From Rhizaria sp. SCN 62-66 (taxonomy: Eukaryota): a stretch of 39,385 nt of DNA. Positions within the stretch are counted from its first letter, which is position 1; each line of letters begins with the position of its first letter. The stretch covers positions 1-39,385 of the forward strand of contig MEDY01000298.1 of assembly GCA_001724265.1 (NCBI GenBank), given 5' to 3'. Both the position numbers and the translations under genes were made by a program. This document shows, one piece after another, positions 2,558-25,100 of this stretch. The notes below the pieces were generated by a model. The model was not told the DNA's origin and searched no databases. It saw nothing but the letters and a program-made list of their open reading frames with translations.

Positions 2558-5500
2558 TTAAGCGGGCTTGCGCATGGTTTCACGGTCGTGCATGTTCTTA
2601 ACGCCGTCGACGGGCTTAGTGACAGCACGGTACGCAAGCGCAACGGCGAGCGCAAAGACGAGGACAATACCGATCGACACAAAGGCGACAATCTCACCAC
2701 CAATGCGGATCGTGAAGAAACGGACGTCACCGTCGAGCTCCTCGGCGTATACGCACGCCAGCGTCGCATTCTCACACGGCCGCTGCAGGTCCGGCATCGC
2801 CGTCTCGGGCGGGCAGAGGCGCTCCAGACCCTCTCTAACCTCGGCGGAGTCGGCCGAGTTGACGCACGTGACGTCGCGGCTCTGCACCGTGCCGCACGCG
2901 GAGCAGTTGTTCCACGACTCGGGCCGCCACACGAACGCTGTCGACAGCGAGTTGGACGACATACACTCGCCGTTGAAGCATTGCTGGCCGTCGCCGCACG
3001 GCACGCCCGTGTCCATAATGCGCGCGGAGCCGGCGGAGCTGAAGTAGGTGCACGAATCGGAGCTGCTACGAGTCGACGAGCAGAACATAGTACCGCAGAA
3101 GTTGCCGTTGTTGAGCTTAGACTGCGACGCACACGCGGTGTAGGGCGCGCCGGAGAAGCTGGCGCCGGCGGCCGCACACGCCTGCGCGTGCGACATGCAG
3201 GCGCCAGCGTAGCAGTTGCCGGTGCTACCGCCGGCAACAGAACACTCGTGGCCGGCGCCGATGACGAGGTCGGTGGGGCAGGAGGCCGATACGCCGTCGC
3301 ACACTTCGGCCAGGTCACACGACGACGTCGCGGCGCGGCAGATGAAGTTCTCCGACGCGCTGCGCAGCTGGCACGAGGACGTGCAGCAGGCGTCGCGCGA
3401 GGAGCACGCGGCCGTCGACTTGAGCTGGCAAGTGGAGCCGTTGCAACAGTTGTCGACGCCGGTGCAGTCAGCCTGGCCGCAGTCGCACACCTCGCCCGCC
3501 TCGACGAAGCCGTTGCCGCAGATGGGGTCCTCGCCCCACTTGGTCGTAGGCTTGTTGAGCAGGCACGTGAGCGAGCTGTCGACATAAGCGTTGAAGTAGG
3601 TCACGGAGCACGTGGAGAAAATCTTGGGCGGTAGGATGCCGACGACGGCGTTCATGACGAAGCCCGACGCCGCGCACGTGTTGCCCTGTGAGTCGTGCAT
3701 CATGGCGAAGTTATGGCCCAGCTCGTGCGTGACAACGGTGGCGACGAACTCGGTCGTGTGCGACGCGCGCGCCTGGTTAATGCCACCCGCGTACGCGTTA
3801 ACGCACTGCACGGCGACACCGGCGTAGCCCAGCACGGTCTGCTCGAAGTCGTGGCCAGACAGTAGGTGTCCGTTATCGTGCGTGGGCGCCACCGCGGTGT
3901 TCGAGCGCCACGAGTTCCACTTGGCGAGCAGCTCGTCGACGGATACTTCACCGGTGGCGCACGTCGAGCACGTGCCGACGGCCACGGTCCAGGGGTCCTG
4001 AACGACGAAGGCGACCTGCGCCACGAGCACAATCTCCACGGTCGTGGAAAAGGTCGTCGTCGAGGCGTAGATCGCAGCCATGGTGTTAGCGATCGTCGCC
4101 GAGTCGTACTCGGTCTGCTCCAGCAAGCGGTTGTAGCGCAGATTGTCCGATGCAAGCATGAGCTCCACGTAGATGATCGACGGCACAGCCTTTGTCGCCA
4201 TCTTGACATTCGCGCTCACACTTGCACCGGCGGCCGCGCTGTCGGCGGCGGCGAGGTCGGGGGACATCATGTCGACGCCTGCAGCGCGCAGCTTGGCTTC
4301 GATCGTGCGGCGCGTCTCGGCGAAGCTGCCGTGGCCGTGGTGCCGGTTGTGGTGGCGGTGCTGGTGGCGGCGCACGCGCGCGCTCTTGGCCTCGGCACGC
4401 GCCTGGTCGTGCTCATCCTCATCCTCGTCGTCTTCGAGGTCCGCCTCGATGGCGTCGTGCGCGACACCGCAACGCTTGCCACCGGGCGCAATCCCGGCCG
4501 CCTCGTCGGCCGCCGCGGCCTGCGCCGCGAGGTCGAACACGACGTGCAGAGCGCCGGGCGAGAGCGCCTCGCCGCGGCCGTTGGCGACGCTGGCGAGCGC
4601 GAAGGCAACGTCGCGCTGCGAGAGCACGTTCACCGCCGGGCGCACGCCGTACTCGGTGCCGTTAAAGCCCAGCACGCCCGCAAAGCCTCCCGTGCAGGTG
4701 TCGAGCGCGACGAACGTGTCAGCCACGGCGGGCGTCGCCGCGGCCTCGGCGACGGTGAAGCGCGGCGCCGCAGCTGCCAGGTGCACAGCCGCAGTGTCCA
4801 TGCCGCTGCCGTCGGCGCCGTTGACAGCGCTGTGGGTGGTGGCGGCGACAACCTTGCCGTGGTAGTAGCAGTGGACAACCTCATCGCGTGTCTTGGCGGC
4901 GGTCTCGAGCTCGGTGATGCGCTTGCCGTCGATCCACACCTGGCGCTGCTCGGTGTAGCTGGGTGCGAAGAGTGCCTCGTTGCGCGAGTAGTAGACCTCG
5001 ACCGTCGTGGTGGGCGTCAGCGCAAGCGTGAGCACCCCTGCGGCGGGGTGTTCCCACGAGGGCAGCGTCGGGGCCGAGAGAGACGTCACGGACCATCCGC
5101 CCCAGGGGTCGGAGGCGAGGCGGGCGTGGTATAGGTCCGCCGCCGCAGAGGGGGAGAAGATGCGCGACGAGGACGCCGCGCGCGGGAAAAACCACGACGA
5201 CGTGGCCGACGCAGAGGAGAAGCTCTCGGCGCCGGACTTAACGTTGTTGTGGTTAGCCACAGTGGGGAGCGAGGAGGCGAGCATCTCCCACGTGACGCCG
5301 TCGCGGTACAGAGGAGCGGGCGCGCCAGTGGCCAGAGTCGCGAACGCTCCGGTCGAGGCAGCAGCAACCGCCGCAGTAGTAGCGTCGGAGTTAGCGTCGG
5401 CGAGGAAGTGGGTGGAGGAGACCGAGGAAATGTGGTAGCCGTTAAAGTCGGCGAAGGCGGGCGTGCTGTGGACGGAGAATTGCAGTGTGACACAGGCAAA

Positions 5501-5727
5501 GGCGAACAGGCAGCGAAATAGGACAGAGGGTACGAAATCTAGGTGAGATAGGGTACTGTTCAACACGGGAAATGAAAATAGGCGTGCAGTAGTTGAGGGT
5601 CGAACACGTACCGACCAGCTTTGCCGAGGCGAGAGTACTGACTGAACTCACCAGCGCTCGTTGTCGCAGGGGCCGCGACGGCGGCGGCGACGGCCACAGC
5701 GGCGACGAAGAGGACAGAGCGCATCAT
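2558..5727 (-). CDS. ADAM/reprolysin (M12B) zinc metalloprotease-disintegrin, type I membrane protein, ~1007 aa; exons 5727-5612 and 5465-2558
   Basis: Signal peptide MMRSVLFVAAVAVAAAVA; prodomain with cysteine-switch-like KRCGV; YVELMLASD strand; zinc motif HELGHNFAMMHD (3727-3692) and Met-turn FVMNA; disintegrin CGNGFVEAGEVCDCG...CRAATSSCDLAEVCDG; Cys-rich region; TSP1-like WRPESWNNCSACG...QSRDVTC; TM helix IVAFVSIGIVLVFALAVALAY; TAA stop. Confidence 0.92.
5466..5611 (-). other. Spliceosomal intron, 146 nt (GTACGT...CCACAG), phase 2
   Basis: Removing it joins the signal-peptide exon in frame to ORF 2558..5566 (..GKAGR|TPAFADF..); the 3' half is pyrimidine-rich. An alternative in-frame pair (GTGAGT at 5651 / TAG at 5541-5539) also exists. 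Confidence 0.65.
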
Positions 5728-6505
5728 GTGGGTCAGAAGACAAAAAAACCACAAGTGGGGTCGGTGGCGAGAGTGGGACGCGAGACGTGGAGGCGGACCT
5801 CTCGGGACGCGGCGAGGCGGCGGGGCACTTACCAACGAAAAAAACTTGCCAGCGGGGTTGGGCGGAAACGCTTTGCTACCAGAGTTCTAAAGAGAAAGTG
5901 ACTGAGTATGCCAAAAATAGAGGGCGAGTTGGGATGAACAGCGTCAGAAACAGTCGTATGCCGAACAAATTGGAACGTAACAGTCAATAGACGGCGCGTA
6001 TCGGGCTGAAAGAAGCAAGTGCCCAGTACTGCTTGAACACCCCTTTGCGCAGAAGAGAATTATCACAAAAACGACCTTCTGCGCATGCAGAGTTATTTGA
6101 TAAAGATAATAATCACAAGGGGCAATTCGAAGAGACACTTTATAGCGCTATATCAAAGACTGTTGAATGAAAAAACTAATGTAAATAGTCGCCGAGGTTA
6201 CTATCCTCCCCAGTGACTGTGAGCTCTCCTCTTTCTCTGCCCACACCAAGACTCCCAAAACCCTTTGTGGTGAGATAACATTAAATTGACTTATATCTAT
6301 GTATCACTGTTATGCATAAAATTGAACTAGTCTTCGCACAATTCAACATGTTATTGAGTATTATATTTTAATTTTATCTGCTAAGGTTCTAATTGAAGTT
6401 GCTATGTCCTTAATTATCATATTTAGGTTTGATTGGCAAAAGGGCTTGAACCTTGACAAAAGAATCTCAGTTGGGGTGATAAAGTCTGTCATTGAGAGTG
6501 TCAGC
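5728..6505. promoter_or_regulatory. Divergent intergenic region (possible shared promoter) between the ADAM gene and the hypothetical gene
   Basis: Head-to-head orientation and AT-rich composition; no specific element identified. It may hide a 5' exon of the plus-strand gene (possible acceptor TTTAG at 6422-6426). Confidence 0.35.
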
Positions 6506-9436
6506 ATGGATTACATCCCCCCGGCGCACTTGCATGTTGCAGCAGACATTGCGTTCCGTGAACAACGCGTGGGAAGGGCGCAAGCTGTCCTCGCGCAAAG
6601 CCGGAACAAGCCTCTGTTCAACTCGGCCGTTCTTCGTCGCGCATACAACAAACCCGTGCACACACCTGCTCCCGAGCACAAGCTCACCCGCGACCTCGAT
6701 GCAACCACCGCGTTGGACACGTCCATGCGCTACGACGCGCCTCCCGCGCTGCGCTTCGGTTCCGAGGCACCGTCTACTTTGGAATCGAGCCGTTGGGCCG
6801 AGGAGCCAGACGACTCAGCCTCTGCCTCGACAGGATTCCACAACGCCGCGCCGCTTGGCGCGCTGCTGGATCACGTGCGTGTGCCGGAGTTTTCTCCCGC
6901 AGACCTGAGTTACTTTGTTGCTGAGCCTCTCCGCGGGCTCGGGGCATCTCATAACCCTGCCGACAGCAACGCTCTGAGTGGTAGTGACGGCCACTACTCG
7001 GACAACGACGAGGGCAACGACGGACGCCGCGCTGGAGATGCGCGCATGCCTGGCGATGGCGCTGCTTTTATGTTCATAGCAGACGCGGGACGGCATCTGC
7101 TGTCTGACGTGACGCGCTGTCTCAACGCCACAGCCACCAATAACACCACCATGAACACGCACCGGGACGGAGCCAGAGACTTGAATACTGGCGCACACAA
7201 CAGCGAGCAGCTTAACACAGCCGGATTTTTAAGTGGTGTGTCGCCGGCATATCTCTCTCGCGCACGCGCTGCGCCAGAAGACACTGCACATGAAACAACT
7301 TCATTCACATCGCCCGTCCCGCACATCGGCGCAATGGCGGCTACTCCGGCTCGTGGGACGATGGTGGCGATGACGGAGGCGACTCCGCTGCGCGCTGCGG
7401 CTGCAACGGGGCAGGCGCTTGACCAAAGGCTTGCCAGCCTGCTGACACGACTTGACTTTAAGCAGAGTCAAACACACGCTGATGTTGCTGTCGCTCCGCA
7501 CGATTCTGCGCGCACACTGGCGAAGCCGAGCCACTCTTACGCGCGCATGCTACAACAACAACAAGCACAACTAACAGAGCAGCAATACCAACTACTGTCA
7601 CAGAAAGAGCAATTGTAGCTGCAGAAAATTAAGTTCAGCAACAGCGGCGCCGACTTCATTGTGCGTAATACTGCCACTGCTGGCAACACAATGACAATGG
7701 ATGGCGACACGACGACTGACAACGCTGCAATGCAAAATTATAACCAGTGTAACAATGTCGGAGCCGATGGCCTTGCTAGCAGCAATATTGCAGCTTATAA
7801 CAACCCGAAGTACTATCACTACACTAATTCGTACATTGACACCACATTGCCTATTCCCTCAGTTCCGCACAACGCTTACTCTCAGGTTACTAACCATGAC
7901 GATAACAGCATCAGAGCTGAGAGAATCGGGGTTAATCATGGTTGTAAGCAGGCTTCCGGCTTACAAAACGGTACATTACAGACTGGATATGCTTATATTG
8001 CTCAGGAAAGCGAAGCTCACGTTGACGTTGATGATTATGACACTGGCTATGACTATTGCAACGCCGGCAACAGTATCAGAGTGGTTGCTCAGGAGGCGCC
8101 CAGTACCCTGCCTGCTGCAGAGAGTGGGAACGCGTACATTCTCAATGACAGCGATATCTTGAGCCATGGATGCGATTATGATGAGGGCGATGGCAATGAT
8201 ATTGACGACGCTGCTGAGGACTGTGCTTCGTATGACGAGGGCGCCGGAGCAGAAGATGTCCACAACGAGTACATCGTCAATGATCAAAATAACCATGATG
8301 ATGACATCGAAAATATCATAGAAGACGACAGATTAAGCGAGTACATGAATCCTGACACTCAAGAAACGAAAACTGTCAACGGTAACAACGTCTACAGCTG
8401 TGATCATGTCGAGCACGGTGAAGACTCTCAGAACGATCGGTCATCCTTGACAGCGCACACAGTTAGTCATTTTGCAGGCGTCAACACAATCAGCAACCCG
8501 TACATCCAAAGCGTAAACTCTCTACGCAACACTTACTCCGGTGCAAGTCTGCGCACGGAGCGCGCTTCCGTTGCTGACTCCGACTCCGACTCTGACTCGC
8601 CTCCCGCGCGTGTTCGTCGCGAATATCACGTTGCGCCTGTTACAGCCGCAGCGAGTACCGCTCAGGCGCAGCGGCGCGAACGGGCTGCGAGGCGCGTCGC
8701 GGAGGCTGAGGAGGCGCGTAAGCATAGAGAGATGGAGGCATTTTCTGCGGCTGCGCGTGCGGAAGCAGCGGTGCTGAGCCAGCTGAACTCGTCTGCATAC
8801 GCCACGCACTCATTGCCGCGCGGTGTCGAAAGAATGATGGTGCGCTACAAGTACGATACTCAGACAGCTGTTACTGCGACTGACAGTTGGTCCCCAAGCA
8901 GGGTGCGTTCTGGTGACAAGCTTAGGGCCGCCGCAGCAGCAGCCGCTGCGCGTGCCTCCGCTGCCAGAGCTGAAGTGGCCACAAATAGCTCAACATCCGT
9001 GAAAGCTAATGTCGAGCCCCGGTCTGTGAGCCCGGCGGCTAAGACAACAGACGATACCGTAAACCTCGGTGCGAGCATCGCGACCACAGGCGCGACGTCA
9101 GCCGCGTCAGGCCAGTGGGGCCGCGACGGCTGGGAAACTGGCCTGGCTGGTCGGATGGAGCAAATAACGCAGCAACGGCAGTTCATATCGCACCACCACC
9201 ATGACGCACACAACCCACCAGTCTAGCACCAACAGCGCGGTGGAGTCGACAGGATCTTCACCAGTGATGATGACTCAGATAACAGAGTCAGTAATAGAAA
9301 TGCCGGGATTTATATTCCTGGCGACAGTGTTAGCGACCTTATGAAACACAACCTTAATGCTAATAGAAGCAGCGTTGTGAATGGTGCTGGTCGGAAGACG
9401 AACGTAGTAAACATGATGGATTCTGGGAGTGACTGA
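6506..9436 (+). CDS. Hypothetical, largely disordered protein (~976 aa) with Q-rich and coiled-coil patches; two in-frame TAG codons (7616-7618, 9224-9226); ends at TGA
   Basis: ORFs 6404..7618 and 7661..9226 share a frame, with no other stop in the 14 linking codons. After the second TAG, 69 more open codons run to TGA 9434-9436. The start is uncertain (ATG 6404 or 6506, or an upstream exon). Confidence 0.7.
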
Positions 9437-10505
9437 CTGTGATGATAACAGTGTAACATTGCCTGCACAGGCTGCGTTCTCCCATAACACAGCTCATACC
9501 CTCTACGATGACAATTATTAAGACGGTTATGTTTCAAACATTGTTAAAATAACATCTAAAGCAACAAAAGCGTTGCGTAATCATTCGTGAAGATGAAGAG
9601 AGTGAACAGCTGTGTGTAAGATGATGTTGACGGGCAGTACAGAAAAAAGTGCGCATATTATGGAACTAAGATACTTAGAACGTAGAATAGAATAGTACTA
9701 CATATGTAAATACACACAATTTATTAAAAGACAAGCGATATCCAGCCCATAATTGGTTTTCGTTATCATTGAGTGCTATCGTAAAGAAGTTCTGATATGT
9801 GTGTACGCCTACGTGCCACTTGAAAACAAATGGTAAGCTGCAGTGCCACCAGCATTATTCAATGAGATATTGTATAGATATTGATATTGACTTAGATCGT
9901 CAATGTACTTTGGATACAATTTTCGATTGACATTTACAGCGATTCAAGTCAGGACGTGTTTTTCACCACAAACTTGTAAACGCCATCTCCGTCCAAGAAA
10001 GTGTGAGCGGTTTTGGTGGCTGTAGAGACGAAGAAAGGGAAGCTAAATCGATGTGTTAATCGATTGATAATACTCATATAAACAATGAGTACCTCAAGCA
10101 ATCTGTATATAGTGTATGATGTTACATTTTTCATATTCGCAACACCGGTGTATCATGTGATTTTCTTATGTCGTAGACTTCGAGAGTTATCTCGCGCTCA
10201 CTATGAGTCAGAAGCTTCTGGAGATAGTGCCCTAGCTAATCGAATACGTCTACACAAGCGAACGTAACACGTACGTCACCGATGATTCAATAATACGATC
10301 GATTTTAATCTTGCTCATTTCTTGGTAGCACCCATGATCTGAAACATAGTCAAAATCCAAACATCACAAATCGTTTCTGTTTCCGTTCCGCATTTGTTAA
10401 CAACATCACCAACACAACAGAAGCAAGGGCAAAATCTTTAACGACATCGACAACTATATCAAGAGCTTTTTCGAATGCTTTGTTTTTCCAAATGATCGCG
10501 GAACC

Positions 10506-13500
10506 ATGGTCGATAAGTTAGTCAAGCTTCGCCGCGAACTTCTCTTACTTAAGGCTCCCTTTGCCGTGCGTGCGGCGCGCGTGCAGCTGAGTCACCAAAT
10601 CACATCAAACAACATCGTTGTTGTCTCTGGCAGCAAGGAATATGGAGCGCTTGGCCAGGGCAAGACGACGCAGATCCCGCAGTATCTGGCCGAACTGCCA
10701 TGCTTCGAAGGAAAGACCGTGTTGTGCTCGCAGACATCGCGTCTCACCGCACGCCACGTTGCGGCCACCGTCGCACCGCTCTACAACGCGACGGAGAGGC
10801 ACAACTTCGTATCAGCCCGCAACCCGCAAAAACTCACAACGACAGATACGGAGATTCTGCGCACCTACTTTGATGATCTATACACAGTTGTTCGTCATCG
10901 CTCCAGGCGTGATGAGAACGCCGCATCCGTCGTTCTTGCTGGTAACCACGCACTTACGAACCTAACCGCGCACACCCGCATTGCATATGCGGCAGAGGCC
11001 GACATCTTTGCAGCTGTGCGACAGTCTATTGAGCGCGGCCGCGCGGCGCGCCTGGGCCAAGCGGGCGAATGGGCGCCGCATGGCACCGTGGGCTGCTTCG
11101 TGCTCGACTCGTCGCACTTCACGGGAGCTACGTCGGCAGACGCTGAACGCTATCAACAGGGCGAGTTGGGACTCGATGTCATGCTCTACGTTGCGCGCAC
11201 GGCAGCTGCAGCTGGAGTCAAAGTTGTAATCATTACTCACAGCTTCGACGCCGAGGATGTGGTGGAGAGGTGCACAACTCCTGAGTCTGGCAAGCCGCCT
11301 CACGTGGTGTTCCAAGCCCCCGTGTTGAAACATGACAACCAGTATTTGTCACTACGCCATGGTATAATGTCTCAAAACACAGTGTCTGCGGCAACGGTGC
11401 CCACGATCAACGGTTGGTTGCGTGCCGCGGGGAATTTGGAGCCATTCCAAAACCTCCTTGTGTTTCAGCCTTCAAGTGAGGCTGTTGAAGCAACTCAGCG
11501 CGCGCTAGCGCGTCCATCAATCAAGCAGGAAATGCCCAAAGGTGACACATTTACGGTGGTTGCTATCACTGACGAAGACGCCGTGTTGCGCACTGTCGTC
11601 GGCATCAGCTCGGTCTCAGGCACATTAATTGCGGACTCAACCGCAAACGACGTTGATGGCGACGATGTCGCTATGCGGGAGCCGCGAGCTAGTCACAGGG
11701 CTTACGCTGTTTATCAAAACGCGGGCCGGGCCCACCACTTTGTGTTCCTGGTATCCCCACTGGCTGCGTCATCATTGCGCTTCCAAAGCATCTCCGCAAT
11801 TCTCAGCCCGTTCATCGAGGTGCATCGCACCGTGGACGAAGAATCGGGAGTTCAGGTGGAGACTGCGGGTGCCCCTACAAGCGCCATAGTTGAGCACCAT
11901 CAGCAGTTACTATTTAACTGTGCACGATATGACAATCCGAAGAATATTACAAGTATTTTTCAGACGACTGCTCATGCAGTTAATTTGATTAAGACCAAAC
12001 GGCCCGAACGATTGCCGCTGCAAGGTGCCTCGTTGCAACTTGCACTACTTGCATTTGAGTCTGTTGGAGTTGATGTTAAGACATATGAATGGTTGCAACG
12101 CCCTACAGCTCTTTCGCTTGCTACTGCACGCGATGAGCTTGACCGCTTGTTAACCACAGATACACAGCGCGTCTGCAGTAGCTCTTCGCGCGCATTGACA
12201 GCAAAATTCAGCTTGGCGCTGGGTCTGCCGCCTGAGCATGCCGCCCTAATTGTCAATGGCGCACTTATTGCGCGCACACCCGTGGGACTGTACGTTGCGG
12301 TTGCAATGCAGTTTTCTGCACTTTCTAGTCCACTTGCAGCCCCTGTTGCCAGCGGCACAAAACCCTCGTCGCAGATGATCGGCGATAACGGCATCGGCCC
12401 GGACAATGACGCTTCTATTGTGCTGCCTTCGCAGCCGATGCCCGCAGTCTCGACTGTCGGTAATGAGCCTGGTGCTAGGTGTACATTGCTGGCAAACAAC
12501 CGTGCCGCGTGTGTTCCTATTGACGCATGCGTGCGCGCCATTGCTGCGTGGCAAAGCGATCGCAGCGTGCAGGCGCGGCAGCGCGTGTGTGAGGATACTG
12601 GACTCTCTCAGGCTTACATGCTCTCAACTGACGCTTGGCTTACGTCGCTAATTGATGCCACACACGGTTTTTTAACCTCGAACTTTGCGGCAAACGGTGA
12701 GGCTAATGAGATGGTAGCGCGCATTGCGAGGGTGATTGAGCGACCGCTTCCATCAGCAACAATTGCGTGCGAGACAACCATGGCGGAGTTAATGCACCGC
12801 AGTGTGGCGGAGGTTTTTCGCCCGCGCTTGATTCACCCATTCGCGGCTGTTCTTGATAACGGCGAGCGGCCCACAGCCACGCACGCAACGTACGTTAGCG
12901 CCAAGTCACATGCGTTGCTGCTGGACGCCCGCCCGCACGTGCCCAACCCTGTGGTCGGTCACGCTGCGACACAACCCGTGGCTGTGTACAACATGGGAGC
13001 TGTGGGCGTGAAAGGTCAATGGCTGCTGTCACCGCCGGCGCTTTCGCTCCCCGCAGTCAACGGTGTCCTGAGCAGGCAGTCGCGCGGCCAAGCAGTCTTT
13101 GTTCCTATGCAGCCTGGCATCCTCGCGCTTATGTTTCCCAACACAGAGGCAGTGACGCTGTTAAGTAAAAAGCTGCGCTGCTCCCTTAAGCTCGACGCAG
13201 AGGGTGTGATGGCATTCAGTGATGACGCAGGAGTTCGCGAGAGTGCACATATTGAGCTATCAAAGCTGACTCATGAAATCGGATTTCAGGGTCTTGTAGA
13301 CGTTTCGCACTTTGGCATTGCGGCAAAAAGTGTTGCGCTATGTGGTGAGGGCATGGACGTTCGTGACGTCGCATTCGCGGACGAGAAAACGTCTGTTGTG
13401 CTTCGTGGTGTACCTGAGCGCTACGCGTGTTCAGAGCGTGTGTTTAATGAACTATTCATTGAGGCTCTTGAGCTAGAGCATGATGTGGCACGAATCACAA

Positions 13501-16065
13501 TTAACGGGGGAAAAAAGGCTGTTCATGCGCCTCAACAACTTGAGAAGCCACCCAAGCACAAGAACTCCGATAACGCAGTCAACGTTGCCAATAATCATTG
13601 TGATGACGAGAACGCAAGTGGCGACAGCAGTGGCGACGATGGCGGTGACGAAGAGGGGGAAGCGGCTGCAGTCGCAGAGGAACATCAAGCCCCGGATAAG
13701 GTTGCGGCACTAGAGCTAGACGATGGGTTTGACGACGAAGAAATGCGGCGCGTGATCGCTCTCAGTCTCGAAACTGCCAAGCTGGCGCCTCGTGCTAGGG
13801 AGCAGTTTTACACGGTGACGCTATAGTGTACATCGGTTGAAAGCACGCAAAACGTGTACAACAAGCTGGTGACGTTTTATCGGACAACAAATGATATCAA
13901 GATTCACGTCAGCCTCAAGTCTAACTTTGCTGATGCAACATTTACGGCAAAGAAGTCGACAAAGAATCAGCTGCTTGACTTTTCAAACGATAAGCGTTAC
14001 GTTCAAGGTGTATGGACGCGTCAGTTGTCATTCTTTCGCGTCACGTATCGCGCTACTTCTGAAGCTAGTTCGCGTAACTTGCATCCGGCTCTTAAGCGTT
14101 ACGAAAATAACGTCTACAAGCCAGGCGTGGTGGTAAGCGCACGTAATAATGCACGGCAATACGAGAGGCCTTCGTTGTATGTCGACTTTAATGTATTCCC
14201 AATGATTGAGCAGGATGCATCAAAGTTTGAAGTCAAAACAATGCATTCGGTGCGTTTTTACATTCCATCTGATGTTGGCCGTGTGATTGGACAGTCAGTT
14301 GTAGATGCATTGATCAAGCTTTGCAAGAGTAAGCTTATTGATATTGCAAGTGAAGATATCAAAGGCACGCGTTTTGGGTCGCGTTTTGAGATTGTGATGG
14401 CTTCGACTGGCGAGGATGAAGTTTCTCGTGCGCGCGTCCTTGTCGACGAGCTCTTGGTCTTTCGCCGTTTTCAGCTTTCTGAGCACCAATTTAACTGTGT
14501 TGACACAGCATGCGGTCTCCTTTAGCTGCAAAACATCATTAACACATTTCAATGCCAAGTTGTACCCCTGACTGCAAAGCCTAATGCACCTAGCAGTGCG
14601 ATGATGTGGCTGGGCTTGCGTGAAGAAGAGAAATCCATTGACATTTTTTGCGCACCTGTGCAGTTACCCGACGTTTTAGCTGCATTGAGTGCATTTGCAA
14701 CCAAACTAAGCGAGCGGACAGGAAGCAACAGTGTAATGTACCTGCAGCCGCATGCATCGCCGACAGAGGTGCTTCAACTTGCGCGCGACTGCAGTGTCTT
14801 TATCGGCACGTTTCAACTTACGCCAGCACAACTCATCGCAACAGTAGCGGGCTGTGAACAAAGTTTGTCACGAATTACAATGCAGCTGCAGCGCGCAAAC
14901 CTGCTGCGCACTAAGAGCGAGCTTGCTGTGGCGCGAAACGCCGGTCCTTTTTGCTGGCATTGTCACCGCGCACTGTCCCGGGCGGATGCAGGGAACGTCA
15001 TGATTAAATGCCACCATATGACATGCGCTGACTGCTTGCCTGTGTTGCTGGAGCGCTGCCGCGTCTCCGGCTTCCGATGTCCCGCATGTGTTGATGAGAA
15101 AATGCCTACGGATATGTCTCAGTGCGACATCCTGTTTGAGGGCATCCCGTCGGATATTTTACGCACGCTCTATATGAAGCACGTCTGGAGCTTTGTTGAC
15201 AGGCAAACACGTGGTACTATTATCCGTTGCCCTACGCGCTACTGTATGGAAATTCAGCGCCCTAACATGCTCCGTTTCAATGGTACGTTGCTATTTCATA
15301 ATGCACACAGTGTAAACAACTGCATCGCTATTATGCCCGGCTTAAGGGCGATAACTGCAAACCTGGCTAACAAAATCCAACTCGGCAATGCGGCTATGCC
15401 TACGCTTGCTATACGTCATTTTTGAGTTATGATAGATGATGTTATGATAACTTTCAATCAAACTCACATCCAATCCCGTTTTATTTTTCATATGTAATTT
15501 TTGCACAGACGTGTCAGGTGTTGAGTTTGCATGTACAACGTGTCTAGGTGTGCATCAGCTCCCAGCCCAAGCAGACCCTGCCACCGCGTCTGCCGTTGTA
15601 ACGAATAACCGTTCAGTCTTTGCGGCGCTGCGCGAGGCGCTGCCGGACCGGTGCCCTAACTGCCGCGCATCAATGTCGACGTTTGTGGCGCGCGCTGAGG
15701 TTGACTGCACGGCGTGTAAGCATGTTGTGTGCGCGTGTTGCTTTGCTTACAGCGCCTCTGATGACTCATGTATTCGTGAGCACATTGTTAGCTGCGGCCA
15801 CAACCCCGCACGCGTGGGCAATAGCGCGCTCAGGCGCGCTTTTGTGTCGGACCGCGAGCTTGAGAAGCTGCAGCGCCAGCGGCGCGCAGAGCGTGTGACC
15901 CAGGTTGTGGAGCGTTTTGGCGGCGGTGCGCTTGGGAATGTGTGGGAGTTTGTTCATCGCAGTGCAGTGAATACCCCCAGCGCGCTGACGCAGTACCTCG
16001 ACTCGGGCGAGTTCGCGCGGACATGCGACTTTAAACCTGACCTTAACGCCAAGGAGTTTCACTAA
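10506..16065 (+). CDS. Degenerate DEAH-box helicase fused to a UIM, RRM/KH-like region and RBR-type RING1-IBR-RING2 (architecture like plant DEAH11/DEAH12), ~1777 aa; exons 10506-15282 and 15509-16065; in-frame TAG at 13824-13826 and 14523-14525
   Basis: GQGKTTQIPQYL (motif I), CSQTSRLTARHVA (Ia), FVLDSSH (II), LLVFQPS (IV), SPLAASSLRF (V-like); UIM DDEEMRRVIALSLE (~13731-13772); C3HC4 RING CWHC...CHHMTCADC...CPAC (~14952-15089); IBR-like CPTRYC...CTTC-x3-H; RING2-like CPNC...CTAC-x4-CACC. ORFs 10506, 13854 and 14601 are in one frame; TAA stop. Confidence 0.8.
15283..15508 (+). other. Spliceosomal intron, 226 nt (GTACGT...TTTTTGCACAG), phase 1
   Basis: AT-rich with canonical ends. Splicing gives MLRFN-D-VSGVEFACTTC and joins the two halves of the IBR-like domain in frame. 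Confidence 0.88.
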
Positions 16066-16919
16066 TGCACCCATTTGCAAGTTGTTCACTTGCTGTTTTA
16101 ATATACAGCTGTATATTTACAAGCATTCTCCAGAACAGCGGGGCTAAGACAAATTTGGTTCTCTAGTCACATGTGACCGTCAGTTATTCGCACCAAGTTG
16201 AATTTGAAGATTTACTGGCGCATCCTCATGCGAAAGCATTACGTTAGTTCATAAAACATATTATTGCAATTATGTTTCCCATTTTGAGATATCTACTTTG
16301 GTTCTTACAGCGTAACTGCCTCTTGTTACACATGACTCGTTACTCGCGATACTTCAGTTGACAGAAGTCACGACATATCGATTCTCTAACGATAAAAATA
16401 AAAATTAATCTCAAATGTTAAGCTTACTTTGTACAGCAAATGTCGATTTCAATGCAGGTGAAGCCATGTTCATGTTGATACAGTAAGAATCGATAATTGA
16501 CCATGGTCAAAGCCGTTTGTGGTGGGATCGTGCGAAACGGTGGCTTGCTCTTGCCAAGTGGTCCAAGTGCACCACCCAACGGTCGTGTGCGGAGGCACAC
16601 TTTTTGAAGTCAATTATTTCCGTGAAGACTCGTTGATCGCGTGGTATAATAGCGTTTGCACGATTTAATCATGCAATAAGTAGCGCAAAATATTGTTTTC
16701 ACACTGATATCAGCGGTTAATAATCTGTGTACCCCTCGGTGCTCTCATCGTCAGAGTGGGCACGCAACCCTGTCATCCGTTGTGCCTTCGAGCTCTGTCA
16801 AAGCCTATGCACGTGACTCATTGTGCGAAATTCTTCTGTTTCCACATTTTCCGTTGTTTTCAAAACCTGTTTGCGCTTTAGAGTGCTCCCTCGCGCTTAC
16901 GCGTCTTGTTTCCTCACCC

Positions 16920-19900
16920 ATGAGTAAACAGACAACCACATACGGGCGCAACGGTGCGCCCAAGGTCCGGGCGCTCCTCAACAGCGCATGCCCCGACTTT
17001 GCGCATGCCATTTTTGTCTCCCAGCGTTTCCCGATTGCATCGATTATTGACATGTCGTCCGAGTTCACCATGGACAAGATCTGCCGCCGCTTCGACGCCG
17101 CGGTGACCAAGTTCCTCTCCGGAGAGATTCCTAACTCGATGAGCCACTTCGTCTACGCGCAGGTCGCACAGATGAACTACCTTATCCTGCTCCACTACTT
17201 CTCTGACTACTACCAGGCTGCTTTCGAGTCCGCGCTGAAGAAGCATCTCGCCGCGCTGCCCGCTGACGCGTCCCCGGAGGCCGTCGCCGCGGCCCACATC
17301 GCCGCCCACGACGCCGTGACGGCCTTCGCGCCTGTGCCCGTGCTCGTGCCCAACCTCTGCGCGCCCAACGCCGAGCTCAAGCGCTAGCCCGCGCCGCTGG
17401 CCCGCGCGCTGACAGCAATGCGCGTGCTGCGCATCACGTACATGGACGACCCCGAGGGCGCGGCGCTCTTCTTCCGCGACGTGAGCCGCTACTCGATCGA
17501 CGACCTCGTCGCCTTCGAGGCCTCGGTGCTCTTCCTTCAGGCCGCGCCCGTCGCCGAGGCACGCAAGTTCTTTGCCGCCCGCATTGCCGCGCGCAAGGCC
17601 GCGCCCGCCGCGTCTGTTGCGGCCTCCGCGTCCGCGGCGGCGGCCAACTCGATCGTGACGTGCCCGGCCGCGGTGACCGCTGCGCTCGAGTCGCTACAAC
17701 GGCCCGCGAGCGCGACGGCGGGCGACTCGACCATCCAGCAGCGCACGGACCCTGTGGTGCGGCTGGCCAGCGCCGAGCTGGACGTCGTGCTGGGCGAGGC
17801 CTTCACCAGCGGCGCCGCCGCGCTGCCGCTCGACGACCACGTGCGCGCGCTCAACAAGGAGGCCGAGGAGATCGTCGCGCGCACCACCAGCTCCGTCAAG
17901 GTCACCTCTGCGCGCTCCTTCGCGCTTAAAGCACTGCAGCGCTTGGTGCACCAGCTCTTCGACGGCGCGTACGTGCCCTTCGTGTTCGGCTCCACGGCCT
18001 GGGAGCTGGACTCGCCCTCCTCGGACCTGGACGTCACGCTACTTCACGCCGGCTCGCTGCAGCCGCTGGAAGAGCCGCTGCGCGTGCCTGCGCTGCGAAA
18101 GCTCTCTAAGTCGGTGCGCCGCTCTTTCAGCGTCGAGGCCGTGATGCTCAACGGGCGTCTCCCGCTCATCTCGCTCACGCACGTGCACGAGGGCGTGCGC
18201 GTCGCGCTCCAGGTCTGCTGCACGGCCAACCACGTCGCGCTGAAGACGCAGGCCGTGCGCACGCTTGTGCGCGCGCACCCACTCGCGCGCCCGCTCTTCC
18301 TCGTCGTCAAGCACTGGGCCAAGGCGCGCCACATCATCAACGCCTCGCAGGGCGGCTTCAACTCGTTTGCGTTCCTCATGCTCGTGCTCCAATACCTCCA
18401 GCTCCGCGCCACGCGTCCCCTCGGCGTGCTCTTTGCGCCGCCCGCGCTGCCAGCCTCGGCCGCCGCGCTGCCCGCCAACGCCAACGCCGCGCGCCTCGCC
18501 GCCGCGCCCGCGGACGCCGACTTCACAGTCGTAGATCTCACCACCGCGGCGGGCCGCGCCGAAGCACCCGTGTTCCTCAAGCATCCGACGCTGCTCCCGC
18601 ACCTCAACGCCGCGTGTCCCGTCTCCGCCGATGGCGGCGCGAGTGTCGCCGCCGCCTCGACGCCGCGCTCTGTCGCCTCCGCCAAGGAGGCCGCGGCCGC
18701 TGCCGCCGCGGCCGCAGCCGCTGTCGCCGCCGCTGAGGCTGCCGCGCGCCCCGGCCACCGCCGCGGGCACTCGCGCCAGATCTCCTCGATTCCGCATATC
18801 ATGAACTCGTTCGACCCCTCGATGGCATCGCTGGCGGAGGACGAGGAGCTGGCCGCGGACGCTGGCGGCGACGACGACGACGAGAACGACACCGCGAGCG
18901 CCACGGGCAGCACGCTCACCACGCCGCGCAGCAAGCCCAGCAAGGCCGTCTCCAAGAGCCCTGCGGCGGCGGCCAAGTCGCCGCAGCGCGGTGCGGGCGC
19001 GACCCCCGTCAAGGGCGACAAGAAGAAGGGCGCGATGGAGCCGCAGATGCTGTCGACGACCAGCACAGCGTGGCTGGCGGCGCCCGTGGTGCCTGCGGCG
19101 GCTATGGCCGAGGATGCGCGCGCGATGGCGCGCAGCAACGCGCTCTTCCTGGGCCCCGTCGCGGGCGGCGCGCGCGTCATCGTCACCCAGTCCAACGGGC
19201 ACATGTTCCACGCTATGCCGCGCGCGCAGCGCTTCAAGACGCTGGGGACGACGGAGCCCGCGGCGTACACCAAGTCGGCGCACCTCAAGGAGCACCTGGC
19301 TGCGCACGGCCAGACCGGCATCGAGTACGCTGACACGCTCGGCGACGTGCTGGCGGGCTTCTTCGCCTTTTACGCCACAGTCTTCTCACCCGCGCTGCAC
19401 GCCGTGTCGGTGCGCGAGGGCCACCTCGTGTGGGCCGAGCCGCTGCGCCGCGCCGCTCCGCAGAAGCCGGCGGCCGCCGCGCTGTACGCGCCTGTGCCTG
19501 AGGCCGAGACGCTGCCGGCCCCCGCGCTCGCGGACCACTTCAGCAATCCGGGCCAGCAGCAGCACAACCAGCGGCAGCAGCACCACCACAAGAAGGAGCC
19601 TAAGCAGCAAGAGCAGAGCAAGCCGGTGGAGATCACCAGCGCGCCGGTGGCCGCGCGCGGCGCGTGGGCGCAGGGCTTGCCACCGGCCATCGCGGCGCTG
19701 AAGGAGCAGAGCGCTCAGCAGAAGGTGCAGACGCAGGCGCAGGCGCAGGAGGTGGCGCGCCAGCAGCGCGAGAACGAGCAGGCCGCCGCGGCCGCGCGCG
19801 CGCTCGAGCCTCGGGTGGAGCAGCGCGCCGCGTTCGAGGGCTTCAACTCGAGCTTCACGGGAATCTTGATCGAGGACCCTCTGGACCCTACCGACAACGT

Positions 19901-21590
19901 CGCGCGCGGCGTCACTCCCCGGCGTCTGCACGCCTTTTTCATTGAGCTCGCGCGCGCGCACATCATGCTGTCGACGCACCAGCGCAGCTTCGCGCAAGAC
20001 GTGTGTGAGGAGGTGACGCAGTCCGTCGCCAACCTGCACGACTACCTCTCCGCCGGCCCCAACACGCGCACCGTGCGCGGCCCGACCGACTTTATCCGCA
20101 TCAGCAAGGTCTTCGCCTCGCTGCTCGAGGAGGTCAGCCTCGAGGACGTCGTGGCGCGCGGCCAGAAAGCGCGCGAGACCGCGCTTACGTCGCTGCGCAC
20201 CGAGATGGACCGCAACCTTGCGCAGTTCCTCGAAGAGCGCCGCCGTCGCAACGCGGCCAAGCGCGCCTCCAAGAGTGCCAAGGCCGCCACCTCGCCTGCC
20301 GCCGTCGCCTCGGCTGCTGCTGCCGCCACTGCCGCTGCGGATTCCGCCGAGGCCGCGGCCGCCGCGCCCCGCGTGAAGCGCGCCCGCGCTGCCGAAGCGC
20401 GCTCCAAAGCCAAGGCGCGCGCGCAGGCTCTGCGCTCTCACGCGCCTGCCGCCGCTGCCGCGTCGTCGACCGCCGAGGACGACGAGGCGATCGATGCGGC
20501 GCTGCAGGAGGCGCGCTCCAAGGCGCAGGCCGCGGGTCTAGACCTGGACGAAATCATGCAGGCGACGCAGGACAAGACGCGTTCGCGCGTGAAGAAGAAC
20601 CGCATGTCGATGGGTCCTGGCGCGGGCGCACCGTCGCCGGTTAAGAAGCCCGACCACGCCCTTGAGATGTCGCTCATGGCCATTCAGCTCCAGCTTGCCG
20701 CTCGCGCCGAAGCGCAGCGCCAGGCTATGCGTCGCGCGCAGCAGCAGCTCAACGACGCCGCTGATGCCGCGCTTGCTGGCACCCTTGCCAAGCCCGCCGC
20801 GCCCGCCGCTGCGCCCGCTATTGAGACCAAGAGCACCACGCCGTCGTCCTCGTTCAAGAGCGACGCCACTGGCGATGATGAGGATGATGAAGACGATGAG
20901 CTGCTGGCGCACCTGGCCTTTGCGGCCGATGACGACGACGAGAATGACGCGGCTGATAGCTCTGGCGCTATGCGCAGCGGTTTGTCGATCACCGTATCCG
21001 CGCCCGGTGGCGAAAGCACAAGCAACGGCACGCGCTCGCCCCCGCGCTCGTCTCGCCACAGCAAGACGGCGGATGTCGAGGCCGCAGTGCTGCTGCAGCG
21101 CATCTCTAATGCTAGCAGCGCGCTGACGGCGTCTCCCTGGGAGGCGCCAACTGCGCCCGTGATCATGCTCCGCACCGCTGTAGGCGCGGATGACGACGAC
21201 TTCGACGACGATGACGACGACTACGATGACGACGACGACGAGGACGACGGCGCGGCCGGCGCGGGCGTGCAGATCCACGTCAGCGCCAAGGTGGACGTTG
21301 TTGCGGCGCACGCGAGCTTCAAGACGACCGAGCCCGACGACGACGACATCCCGCAGCCGTCGATGCGCCCTAGCGGTCGCAAGTCTATGGGCGGCAACGC
21401 CATCGGCGCTGCGGGCGTGGCTGCGCGCAAGCCTTCGACCTTCCACATCCGCAAGGGCTCGCAGCTTATCGGTGGCAACATCTGGGCCGGCATCGGACTC
21501 ACCAGTACCAAGGCGAATGGCAAGTCCGGCAAGCTCGCTGGCGACGACGATGACGATGACGACGAGGATGTTCATATCACTTATGCGTAA
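16920..21590 (+). CDS. Non-canonical poly(A)/poly(U) polymerase family protein (Cid1/Trf4/GLD-2-like, Pol-beta nucleotidyltransferase plus PAP-associated domain), ~1556 aa; in-frame TAG at 17385-17387
   Basis: FVFGSTAWELDSPSSDLDVTL (GS + DxD, 17988-18032), RLPLISL, LFLVVKHWAKARHIINASQGGFNSFAFLMLVLQYLQ, LGDVLAGFFAFYA, and IEDPLDPTDNVARGV (19869-19913). ORF 16782..17387 is in frame with 17418..21590 across 10 open codons, with the same GC3-rich codon style on both sides; TAA stop. Confidence 0.85.
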
Positions 21591-22121: not shown

Positions 22122-25100
22122 TTATTGCATCATGAAACGCTTCTTCTTATTGTTCTCACCCCTTGCACTTGACGTTTGCCCTGAAGCTTGCTTCCGTGGC
22201 GGAGGTGCAGCTGGTGTTTGTTCAGAAGCAATAGTAGACTTGACCCAGTCATAGACTTCTGCGACACGAACCAGGCCGCTGCCACTGCGTCCCGCAGTGC
22301 CACGGGAAGTGACAGTGGCAAAGAAAGCGCGCCAATAGCCACTAGCCCGGCTGAGTGTGGCAACATCGCCGACGACGATGAGTCCTCGTTTGGCGCGCGT
22401 CAACGCAACGTTGAGGCGTCGGATGTCCTCAACGAAACCAATTCCGCCGTGCGTGTTGGAACGCACACATGAGAACACGATAACGTCCTTCTCACGGCCT
22501 TGAAAGCCGTCGACAGACTTAACCTCCACATTAGCGGCCTTTGAAACACCGTTACCTGACACAGCTGCAGAGCCTTGGCCAACAAGAGACGAGAGCGTGC
22601 TGATCACGGGTGCTAGCGCAGCCGCAGCCGCTGCGCTTGCTTCGCGCACGCACTGCGCCTTGCGCTCCTGCTTTGAGGCGGCATAAGTTGCGGTCTCGTC
22701 ATCATCACAATTGTTCTCACTAGCCCGAGACACTGCACTAAAATTGGCAGCAGCAGTTCCTGTGTTTGTGACAGCAGTGGGCTTCTTGTTGAAGCTAACG
22801 AGCGAGGCCTCACTCCAGCCAGCACCAGCACCTGCGACAGCACCGGGAATCACGACAGCCGCAGCGCCGCGCTGCATCTGCGCCTGATGCTGGACTTGCC
22901 CTTGCTGCCATTGCTGTACAGTGGAGCGAACGTGCGAGCGTCCAACGGCGGCAGTGACAGCCGCCTCTGCTGCCTCACTCGTAACAGCGCTTCGGAGAGC
23001 ACGTGCACGTGCCAGCCGTGCTGCAGCAAGAACACGAGCAGCAGTCGCGCGCAAAGGCGCAAGCGCTGTGCTGATATGGCGTTGTAGTTGCCGTAGCTGT
23101 GCAGCATAGGGCGAGATAACGCCAATGTCGCTGACAGAGACTGTAAGTCCAAATGAGCTCGCATCATCCTCGTTGCTGCCACTGGCATAACCAGAGGTGA
23201 TGCTTGTAACAGTCCTGGATAGAGCGCGCTCCTGCGCAGCAATATGGGCACGCACAAGACTAGCTACGACTGTGGCGACAGCCACAGCTTCAGTCTCATT
23301 AGCCTTGGAGCCTGATCCTGAAATAAGTTCTTGCGTCGCACCTGTGTCAATGACAAGCACGGGCGACCAAGCCGCAGCGACACGCGCCCAGGGCAGTCCA
23401 GGGGGAGGGCGGCGGGTCGCTGCAGGCACACCGTCCTCAAGACGGCCATCATAAAGTGCGCCATTCGACCACAGCGAGATGTGCGGGTGCATGCGGTATT
23501 GCCGTGTCAACATACTGCTTTCGGCGCGTGCGAGAGAGAGCGACCATGGCAACATTGCACCCGTCAGGCGCATGCCAGTACCACGCTGGAGTGGAAGCAG
23601 CGGGATGGTAACACCAGGAGCGTGTGTGTGCAGACGCTCAAACAAGGACACATGAGCACCTGCAAGCGTAAGAAGCTCGCCTTCTGCGACAACGGGTGGC
23701 AACTGGCACTGATCACCAACTAGCACAACGCGCGCAAACGCTGCAATGTCCGCTAGACCATCCAGAGGGCCTTCGCTCTCCGTTTCTGCTGAGGCTGCTG
23801 CGGCTGCGAGCGCGCGCGCAGGTGGGCAGGCAGCAAGCTTTGTTAGAGGGACCGCACATGCGTGCTCGGGGGCTTGACTCGCTTCATCCACAACGATGAG
23901 TGTGAAACGCAGCTCCTCAAGTTCTGGTGCGCCTGCAGACACGCACGTGCAACAAATGACATCTGCAGTCGCCAAGATGTGATGGCGAGCCTCGCGCTGC
24001 AAGCGGGCTAGTGTACGTCGCGAGTGCTGTGCAACGTACCCAAGCTCTTCCTGCAACAGCGTGAGCCACGACGCGGACCACAATAGCCGCGCTGCAGCTG
24101 CCACACCTGCCGCAGCGCCGAGCGCACTCACCGCAGCGGAGGCTGTCACACGTTGGTCCGCTGGTACGCTCGCGTTGAGGCCAGTGAAGGGAGCCAGCGT
24201 AAACGCGTCGGCGGCAGCAGCCGCAGCAGGCGTCACCGTTGTTAGCGCACCCGCACCACCATTCGTTGCACGTCGGTTTTTTGCCGTGTCACTTGCGCTG
24301 GCGGAAGAAAGCGAAGAGCTGGACACCGTCGAGAACATACCAGCAGCAAACGCCCACTCAGCGTCTTCTGCCTCATCTTCAGCAGCGTCATCGCTGTTTT
24401 CATGTGGAGCTTCGTCATCTTCGCGCGCGCCACGCCGCCGCATGCGCCGCGCTGTCTTTGCAGTGGGTGCCAGAGTCACAGCAGCACCACCAAAGGGTAC
24501 ATTGGCAAGCGCACGCAGCACAGCGACTGAGCCAGGGCAGAGAACTGCGCTAGTTGCTGCTACGGCTCCAAGAGCTGTGCTCTGGCGCTGGTGAGAATAG
24601 TGCGAGCGCGGAGCCTTGCCTTGCCGCACACGCACCGCCTGCCTGCGATTGTGATATTGTGCGAATGCGCGCTCTGCACTCTCGCTTTGCGACGCAGCCA
24701 CAAATGCGGCGGCAGATGCAGCAGAATGGTGCGTTGCTGCTGTGGCCTCGTGGTTACCGAGCCGTACGGTCGTAACTTCGTTACCAGCAGACGTGACGTG
24801 CGCGGGCGCGGGCGCAAGAGTTGGTTCACTCGCCCAGTGCGGCACACCTGCTCGCTGCCTCAGCCCCGCAAGAAGTGCGACGTAAGCGTCCGTTGCGCGA
24901 CTCGCGTGGTCACCTCCACCATCGAGCAACGCGGCCATCGATGTTTCATTGGATTTATTGCTGCCACCAGTGACACGCGTTCCAGGGCCTGCGTTTGTTG
25001 GCGCGGCTGTTGCAGTGGCAGCATCAGTAAAAACGCCACGCAACCAGTCGCCACCACGGCGTGCGCGCAGTCCGCTAACCGTGCGCGACACAAGCTTCTG

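Follow-up and report, generated by a model that had tools for sequence, protein, structure and literature searches.

The window analysed here, 39,385 nucleotides (nt) long, is the entire contig MEDY01000298.1 (C298) of the genome assembly of Rhizaria sp. SCN 62-66, which comprises 34.9 Mb in 714 contigs. It contains three protein-coding frames that are interrupted by five in-frame TAG triplets (Table 1), and our subject is how this organism reads the UAG codon. The standard code fragments the region; reading through TAG yields open reading frames (ORFs) of 1010 and 1639 codons that end at TGA. TAG is the sole internal stop in the three frames, with 0 TAA and 0 TGA in frame 0; the five alternative frames contain 5 to 104 TAA and TGA triplets apiece in each gene. 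The contexts quoted in an earlier note, which covers 7560..14540, match the sequence. Four of the TAGs (7616, 9224, 13824 and 14523) are in that interval; the fifth, at 17385, lies outside it.

All five TAGs are unchanged, among the differences listed, in contigs of sequencing run X2, an independent sample from another study. The three X2 contigs that span them have 1, 3 and 0 differing letters, all accounted for by listed positions elsewhere. Because these contigs cross all five TAGs without a difference listed there, the TAGs are not assembly errors. A 288-nt contig from the poly(A) RNA run X7 (7378-7665) spans the TAG at 7616 unspliced, unedited and without a joint, at a low depth and with DNA in the RNA library a possible source. 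Coverage of the window by the RNA runs X6 and X7 is thin, and this is the one TAG bridged among the RNA contigs listed. No pyrimidine tract accompanies the window TAGs, and four of the five lack a donor-like motif within 120 nt. Run X2 also holds second, divergent contigs at 16944-17434 and 10994-11062. The first, over a stretch that includes the TAG at 17385, has 75 differing letters and 4 gaps; these contigs represent either a paralog or a related organism.

For the protein encoded at 10506-15425, a set of 1.84 billion representatives contains only three homologs besides the protein itself. It is 55% identical to protein P0243 over residues 439-1179 and 22% identical to P0244 over residues 1187-1595, and its Cys-rich C-terminus is common to distant homologs. 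Two public predictions, P0241 and P0242, are pieces of this same gene that each start after a TAG; they show that standard-code gene calling breaks and truncates this organism's proteins. By eye, the N-terminus of the protein looks like a degenerate DEAH helicase and its Cys-rich C-terminus like a RING, a layout that presumably resembles plant DEAH11/12. Because the ORFs at 6404-9436 and 10506-15425 match no Pfam family, they cannot decide which residue UAG encodes, in agreement with the earlier caution that five poorly conserved sites could not settle it.

Table 1. TAG-bearing genes of the window and the positions of their in-frame TAG codons
Feature	Coordinates	Strand	Remarks
ORF, 1010 codons, intronless, low-complexity	6404..9436	+	2 internal TAG; ends at TGA; no Pfam family
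TAG 1, codon 405	7616..7618	+	In ORF 6404-9436; Gln-rich surroundings; X2 contig 6300-8647 identical there
TAG 2, codon 941	9224..9226	+	In ORF 6404-9436; X2 contig 9126-15564 identical there
ORF, 1639 codons, intronless	10506..15425	+	2 internal TAG; ends at TGA; no Pfam family
TAG 3, codon 1107	13824..13826	+	Homology to P0243 continues across; Met opposite
TAG 4, codon 1340	14523..14525	+	Gln opposite in 22%-identity alignment, unreliable here
ORF, Cid1/MTPAP-like nucleotidyltransferase domains	16782..21590	+	1 internal TAG; ends at TAA; start uncertain
TAG 5	17385..17387	+	Strongly coding sequence both sides; X2 contig 15977-17579 identical there

UAG as a sense codon across the genome

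We followed every stop triplet that comes after 50 strongly coding codons in about 1 Mb of loci from this genome. TAA was followed by non-coding sequence in 47 of 47 cases and TGA in 30 of 30. TAG led into further coding sequence in 14 of 20 cases, with one borderline and five followed by sequence that scores as non-coding. By eye, two of these five are intronic, two continue to code (briefly, or within an atypical gene) and one, on the minus strand of L079, is unexplained. Coding sequence showed no in-frame TAA, either in the window frames or in the loci of this test. In-frame TAGs occur on many separate contigs and in conserved genes, including those for eRF1, UBE2J1, several kinases, a CHD chromodomain protein, SNF2, ABCA and an ASCC3-like helicase, and in eRF1, UBE2J1 and the helicase, the alignment to homologs crosses the TAG with no gap. 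Genes end at TAA or TGA, with UAA the commonest stop. It is beyond reasonable doubt that UAG is a sense codon here.

UAG is rare. It accounts for 53 of 90,869 codons, some intron acceptors included. This is about 0.06% of all codons and about 1% of Glu codons, and UAG is commoner in less GC-rich genes. The genome's codon use is GC-rich, and other A/T-rich codons are also scarce in the same count (TTA 203, ATA 95, AGA 81). The genome has GT-AG introns, as seen in the eRF1 gene, and exon-start TAGs at 3′ splice sites were removed by eye before counting. There are about 11 dynein heavy chain genes; in the 10 that we fetched, all five TAGs within aligned regions stood at an exon start behind pyrimidine-rich sequence and were rejected as intron acceptors, as were TAGs in L072, L079 (first site), L080, L149, L266, L267, L268, L107 and L163, several of them in kinases. 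Searches of the DEAD, ABC, SNF2, TKL and kinesin families returned few exon-internal TAGs, and the single TAG among 54 kinesin matches was judged an intron acceptor.

Splice-site TAGs of this kind (L184-L203, L266-L268, L072, L080) mimic a reassigned codon in six-frame searches. A family of lower-GC genes that combine a kinase with SEL1-like repeats carries several in-frame TAGs in each member (L077, L078 and L079, at G000:C148, C49 and C9).

The residue inserted at UAG

UAG is very probably translated as glutamate, with UAA and UGA retained as stops, in a variant nuclear code. We favor Glu because of the eRF1 and kinase columns in which TAG falls, the summed profile scores and a Glu-type tRNA with a CUA anticodon. 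The eRF1 gene (L031, G000:C63:103370-103699, minus strand) is one of three matches to PF03463; the remaining two are Pelota-like exons from a single gene. Its TAG occupies the column of human Glu107, which is Glu in all 120 homologs, drawn from proteins of at least 449 residues in a search that is no guide to taxonomy. We fetched 32 further eRF1 loci from metagenomes; one was identical to this organism's own and two did not span position 107, and the remaining 29 have Glu in 26 and Gln in 3. In a kinase on contig C18 (L269), TAG falls on the hinge column, where this genome's own paralogs have Glu 43 times, Asp 6 times and Gln never (53 rows). The earlier note had made Gln its lead guess while keeping Glu open, and it had named a conserved-column result of Glu as one that would count against Gln; Glu is now the best-supported residue.

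The other columns are more mixed. The TAG column of kinase L047 holds Ala 13, Glu 11, Asp 7 and Gln 2 among 52 own paralog rows, and that of L078 holds Glu 12, Asp 11 and Gln 3 among 53. The TAGs of L076 and L077 fall in insert columns of the genome's own kinase profile, and the TAG of the ASCC3-like helicase is opposite Cys, Lys or Glu; these are uninformative. For the kinase/SEL1-like family, residues opposite TAG were viewed by eye, uncounted, and were Gln, Asp, Lys or Leu, with two Gln. We scored eight candidate residues per site against Pfam profiles (the Pkinase profile for the five kinases). Summed over 10 in-domain sites, Glu reached 501.9 bits, followed by Asp (497.4), Gln (496.5), Lys (495.8), Ser (493.0), Tyr (483.7), Leu (482.9) and Trp (480.3), so that Glu leads Asp by 4.5, Gln by 5.4, Lys by 6.1, Tyr by 18.2, Leu by 19.0 and Trp by 21.6 bits. 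Site by site, Glu is ahead of Gln at seven, tied at one and behind at two, by 0.1 bit. The view that UAG encodes a polar residue and neither Leu nor Trp is thus upheld. A Leu code was rejected on its score and on the tRNA(CUA), whose variable loop of 4 nt is no long variable arm. Among the metagenome loci, L239, L253 and L255 are the unrelated eRF1 loci with Gln at 107, and L247 and L248 have in-frame TAA, probably reflecting ciliate-type codes.

A pattern search for CUA anticodons gave six matches, one of which is a tRNA(CUA) gene (L035 1490-1562, minus strand; G000:C84, ~76008-76080) on a contig that also bears kinase and kinesin genes of this genome. A second pattern found no further copy, and a third, which did find tRNA-Glu(UUC), had no tRNA(UUA) among its three matches; genes with introns escape these patterns, and scoring with Rfam covered 63 of 506 candidates. 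The tRNA(CUA) scores 58.0 bits with Rfam (own tRNA-Glu, 58.3 and 56.5) and is followed by a T-run terminator, with 15 T among the first 20 nt downstream. It is most similar to the organism's own tRNA-Glu(CUC), with 47 of 73 positions identical, versus 33 and 29 for tRNA-Gln. In a tree that leaves out Leu, Ser and Tyr tRNAs, it lies within a Glu/Asp clade (ultrafast bootstrap 94), away from Gln, and within that clade support is 10-28 and Glu and Asp are not separated. This placement, like the conserved columns, turns the earlier preference for Gln toward Glu.

The acceptor pairs 1-5 of the tRNA(CUA) are the same as in both own tRNA-Glu and unlike those of tRNA-Asp and tRNA-Gln(CUG). It has U11, U13, A46 and a variable loop without position 47, which are Glu identity features in Escherichia coli (PMC9976931); the organism's own tRNA-Asp shares all four. 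Position 32-38 is C32-A38, versus C32-C38 in both own tRNA-Glu, and the anticodon stem is A/U-rich (A30-U40, U31-A39), unlike either. We rejected pyrrolysine decoding, without a search for pyrrolysyl-tRNA synthetase, since the body is a canonical Glu-type cloverleaf. The Pyl label given by ARAGORN follows the anticodon only.

Several observations weigh against glutamate. The main evidence still standing for Gln is sequence context, which recurs genome-wide. We retained 27 of 49 candidate sites as confident; within five residues on each side, Gln occurs 29 times versus 11.3 expected and Glu 14 times versus 14.2. A context score over these sites puts Gln ahead of Glu by 9.6 bits, although it takes neighboring residues as independent and is carried by three Gln runs. 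Three of the 27 sites are in Gln runs, where 0.5% of Glu codons and 13% of Gln codons lie, and four are in acidic runs, where 6.9% of Glu codons and 1.9% of Gln codons lie. Around the five window TAGs, Gln makes up 10 of 100 residues within 10 codons (P ~0.01; 4.2% in the genes overall). This enrichment, which the earlier note had seen at two TAGs, is real but modest: it is strong at 7616 (4 of 20 residues), weak at 9224 (2 of 20, in a His-rich stretch) and absent at 17385. The context may instead reflect how TAG codons arise: CAG to TAG is a transition with a mild Gln-to-Glu change, and GAG to TAG is a transversion, so TAGs would be born from CAG in unconstrained Gln runs.

The remaining points on that side concern columns, tRNA and scope. 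Strong conservation is limited to two of the 10 in-domain sites; when these are set aside, the Glu lead shrinks to 2.4 bits over Gln, 1.5 over Lys and 1.0 over Asp. The preference for Glu over Gln rests mainly on these two sites, with 2.4 bits added by the other eight. At the eRF1 site, Gln is the natural residue of 3 among the 29 divergent loci, and at 5 of 78 invariant columns this eRF1 departs from its homologs in any case, a caveat on its Glu107 column. The UBE2J1 column favors other residues (of 120: Asp 53, His 21, Ser 14, Thr 12, Asn 11, Glu 6, Gln 1), and in the window, Met stands opposite 13824 and, in a weak alignment, Gln opposite 14523. The tRNA(CUA) gene is present once, and its sequence is divergent, with a long branch in the tree. 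A tRNA with a changed anticodon can be mischarged: with an E. coli tRNA-Glu suppressor, the inserted residue was Glu in 59% and Gln in 17% (PMC12204705). Human eRF1 carrying T32S, one of the substitutions found here, is active at all three stops in vitro (PMC3632111). Finally, the loci read genome-wide amount to 963,314 bases plus about 16 kb, about 1 Mb including overlaps, of the 34.9 Mb.

It is unlikely that UAG is ambiguous, being mostly Glu and partly Gln, through mischarging or near-cognate tRNA-Gln(CUG), possibly with some termination. Ambiguity would keep UAG rare and out of most invariant sites. UAG is indeed rare and almost absent from conserved domains (0 of 5 dynein TAGs are exon-internal; kinesin is similar), and it sits in both acidic and Gln runs. 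The mixed Glu/Gln insertion in E. coli is a precedent, and T32S by itself leaves UAG termination in place. However, rarity is expected of an A/T-rich codon with one tRNA gene in a GC-rich genome. A human tRNA-Glu(CUA) with C32-A38 inserts about 95% Glu, with no Gln reported (PMC12204705). Furthermore, the single eRF1 gene depends on its own UAG being read.

A uniform Gln reading is about as unlikely. The Glu-looking tRNA would have to be charged by glutaminyl-tRNA synthetase (GlnRS) through U35, or a Gln-type tRNA(CUA) would have to have gone unseen. U35 is among the determinants of GlnRS, and glutaminylation is frequent in bacterial amber suppressors (PMC9976931). Such a code would explain the Gln-rich flanks, fit the Gln tolerated at eRF1 107 and opposite 14523, and need only the one transition between CAG and TAG to which the earlier note had pointed. 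Against it, Gln is found in 0 of 120 homologs at eRF1 107 and 0 of 53 rows at the kinase hinge, and it trails Glu in the summed profiles. The tRNA(CUA) has none of acceptor pairs 1-3 of tRNA-Gln(CUG) and carries G73 versus U73, and it was the only CUA tRNA among the six pattern matches.

We give very little credence to UAG as Asp or Lys. In their favor, the profile sums rank Asp second and Lys fourth, Asp is the most frequent residue in the UBE2J1 column, Glu and Asp tRNAs are not resolved from each other in the tree, and G73 is common to tRNA(CUA) and tRNA-Asp. But both residues are absent from the 120 homologs at eRF1 107, acceptor pairs 3 and 5 are Glu-type and not Asp-type, and yeast aspartyl-tRNA synthetase strictly needs all three anticodon bases, two of which would differ (PMC9976931). 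Just as little goes to TAG as a stop or untranslated triplet, due to pseudogenes, assembly errors, 3′ splice sites of small in-frame introns or RNA editing: the exon-start acceptors and the 5 of 20 non-continuing TAGs suggest it, but the gap-free homology, the lack of splice signals at the window TAGs, their recurrence in run X2, the unspliced and unedited RNA contig and the presence of a cognate tRNA gene argue otherwise.

Release factor, proposed origin and known codes

A UAG codon that encodes Glu could have arisen by the following steps, whose order we infer. A duplicated tRNA-Glu(CUC) gene would have acquired the CUA anticodon by a single base change (C36 to A), and its position 38 would have changed from C to A. 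The tRNA would be expressed and charged with Glu by glutamyl-tRNA synthetase. With C34, it would read UAG and not UAA. A substituted eRF1 would presumably be poor at UAG and keep UAA and UGA. The five substitutions at invariant eRF1 columns are T32S, M34V, G57S, T58K and K130Q; four are in or beside the stop-reading motifs (TASNIKS, GTS), and Leu69 is kept. We hypothesize from the sequence that they underlie the neglect of UAG. The G of UAG is contacted by Thr32, a position that is Gly in Iotanema (PMC5304391). Because T32S is neutral in human eRF1 in vitro, it would be insufficient alone to explain the loss of UAG reading. In PMC3632111, K130Q is discussed only together with N129P, and G57S and T58K receive no mention. 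The only eRF1 gene found contains an in-frame UAG, and therefore full-length eRF1 requires that its own UAG is read as sense. We speculate that this creates feedback, where more UAG-reading eRF1 leads to less full-length eRF1.

The closest known code by residue is that of the ciliate Oligohymenophorea sp. PL0344, where UAG is Glu, UAA is Lys and UGA is the sole stop (McGowan et al. 2023, PMC10553269). In both organisms, the tRNA(CUA) is most similar to tRNA-Glu and Asp is the runner-up at conserved columns. In contrast to PL0344, with its 10 CUA tRNAs, abundant UAG and UAA as Lys, here there is a non-ciliate with one CUA tRNA, rare UAG and UAA as its commonest stop. Among codes that reassign UAG only, the rhizarian exLh uses Leu and Iotanema spirale uses Gln (Panek et al. 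2017, PMC5304391), phyllopharyngean ciliates use Leu or Gln, and Scotinosphaera uses Ser (McGowan et al. 2024, PMC11687900). Such codes share with this one in-frame UAG in conserved genes, UAA and UGA as stops and a CUA tRNA gene whose anticodon cannot read UAA; they differ in the residue. The hallmarks of a UAG-Gln code, Gln at conserved columns and a tRNA(CUA) derived from tRNA-Gln, were not found here. That code is reportedly also used by Hartmannula and Trochilia, and TARA ciliates are said to use Leu.

Iotanema resembles this organism in that Thr32 of its eRF1 is changed, to Gly there and to Ser here. The eRF1 of exLh has L69A with its motifs intact (PMC5304391), whereas this eRF1 keeps Leu69 and has five other substitutions. 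These differences from exLh suggest an independent origin of UAG capture. In peritrich ciliates and in Blastocrithidia (with UAA dual as Glu and stop, and UGA as Trp), both UAA and UAG, or UAR, specify Glu (PMC5304391, PMC11687900). UAG as Glu is common to these codes and to ours; unlike them, no coding in-frame TAA was seen and no tRNA(UUA) was found. The natural tRNA(CUA) also resembles the engineered human suppressor tRNA-GluV13, which has a Glu body, CUA, C32-A38 and A37 (Specht et al. 2025, PMC12204705). They differ at G30-C40 in the engineered tRNA, versus A30-U40 and U31-A39 here. In the human tRNA-Glu(CUA), the C32-A38 change raised UAG suppression more than 20-fold (PMC12204705).

A literature search, with subscription journals mostly outside its scope, found no report of UAG as Glu with UAA kept as a stop. 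To our knowledge, no NCBI table has this combination. In the 2024 paper, codes that reassign UAG alone have Leu, Gln or Ser, and UAG is listed as Glu only where UAA is also reassigned (PMC11687900). We consider it probable, with somewhat less confidence than in the Glu assignment itself, that this is an undescribed non-ciliate code and the second independent UAG capture in Rhizaria, that it comes with a single suppressor tRNA derived from tRNA-Glu, an eRF1 with a new combination of substitutions near the TASNIKS and GTS motifs and a possible feedback through the UAG within the eRF1 gene, and that the natural tRNA(CUA) arrived by convergence at the C32-A38 pair that was afterward built into a therapeutic human suppressor. 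Codes that split UAA from UAG are rare. If this one is confirmed, it would be the intermediate, so far missing, that links the standard code to the UAR-Glu or PL0344 codes. Its eRF1 would be a natural factor that has to distinguish UAG from UAA; how this is done is an old structural question, and the property itself is wanted for genetic code expansion. Its tRNA would supply a natural eukaryotic Glu amber suppressor.

The host and the rest of the window

The host is an uncultured single-celled eukaryote of wastewater. Its DNA was detected in bioreactor and wastewater metagenomes from at least three studies, a recurrence that brings proteomics within reach. Its lineage is probably Rhizaria, according to a one-gene ISWI tree (67 of 117 sequences after near-duplicate removal), where it groups with Plasmodiophora and Amorphochlora (SH-like support 0.96). 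A metagenome scan for close relatives found none, with one identical contig (L234, 1626 of 1626 nt) and the next at 69% or less; the identical contig possibly represents the same sample.

Two other genes of the window lie on the minus strand. At 2558-5566, the encoded protein has an ADAM-like reprolysin metalloprotease and a disintegrin domain, in what is probably a rhizarian. At 22122-39383, a frame of at least 5753 codons is open, intron-free and TAG-free, with pieces of AAA_11/AAA_12 (superfamily 1 helicase) scattered across thousands of low-complexity residues.

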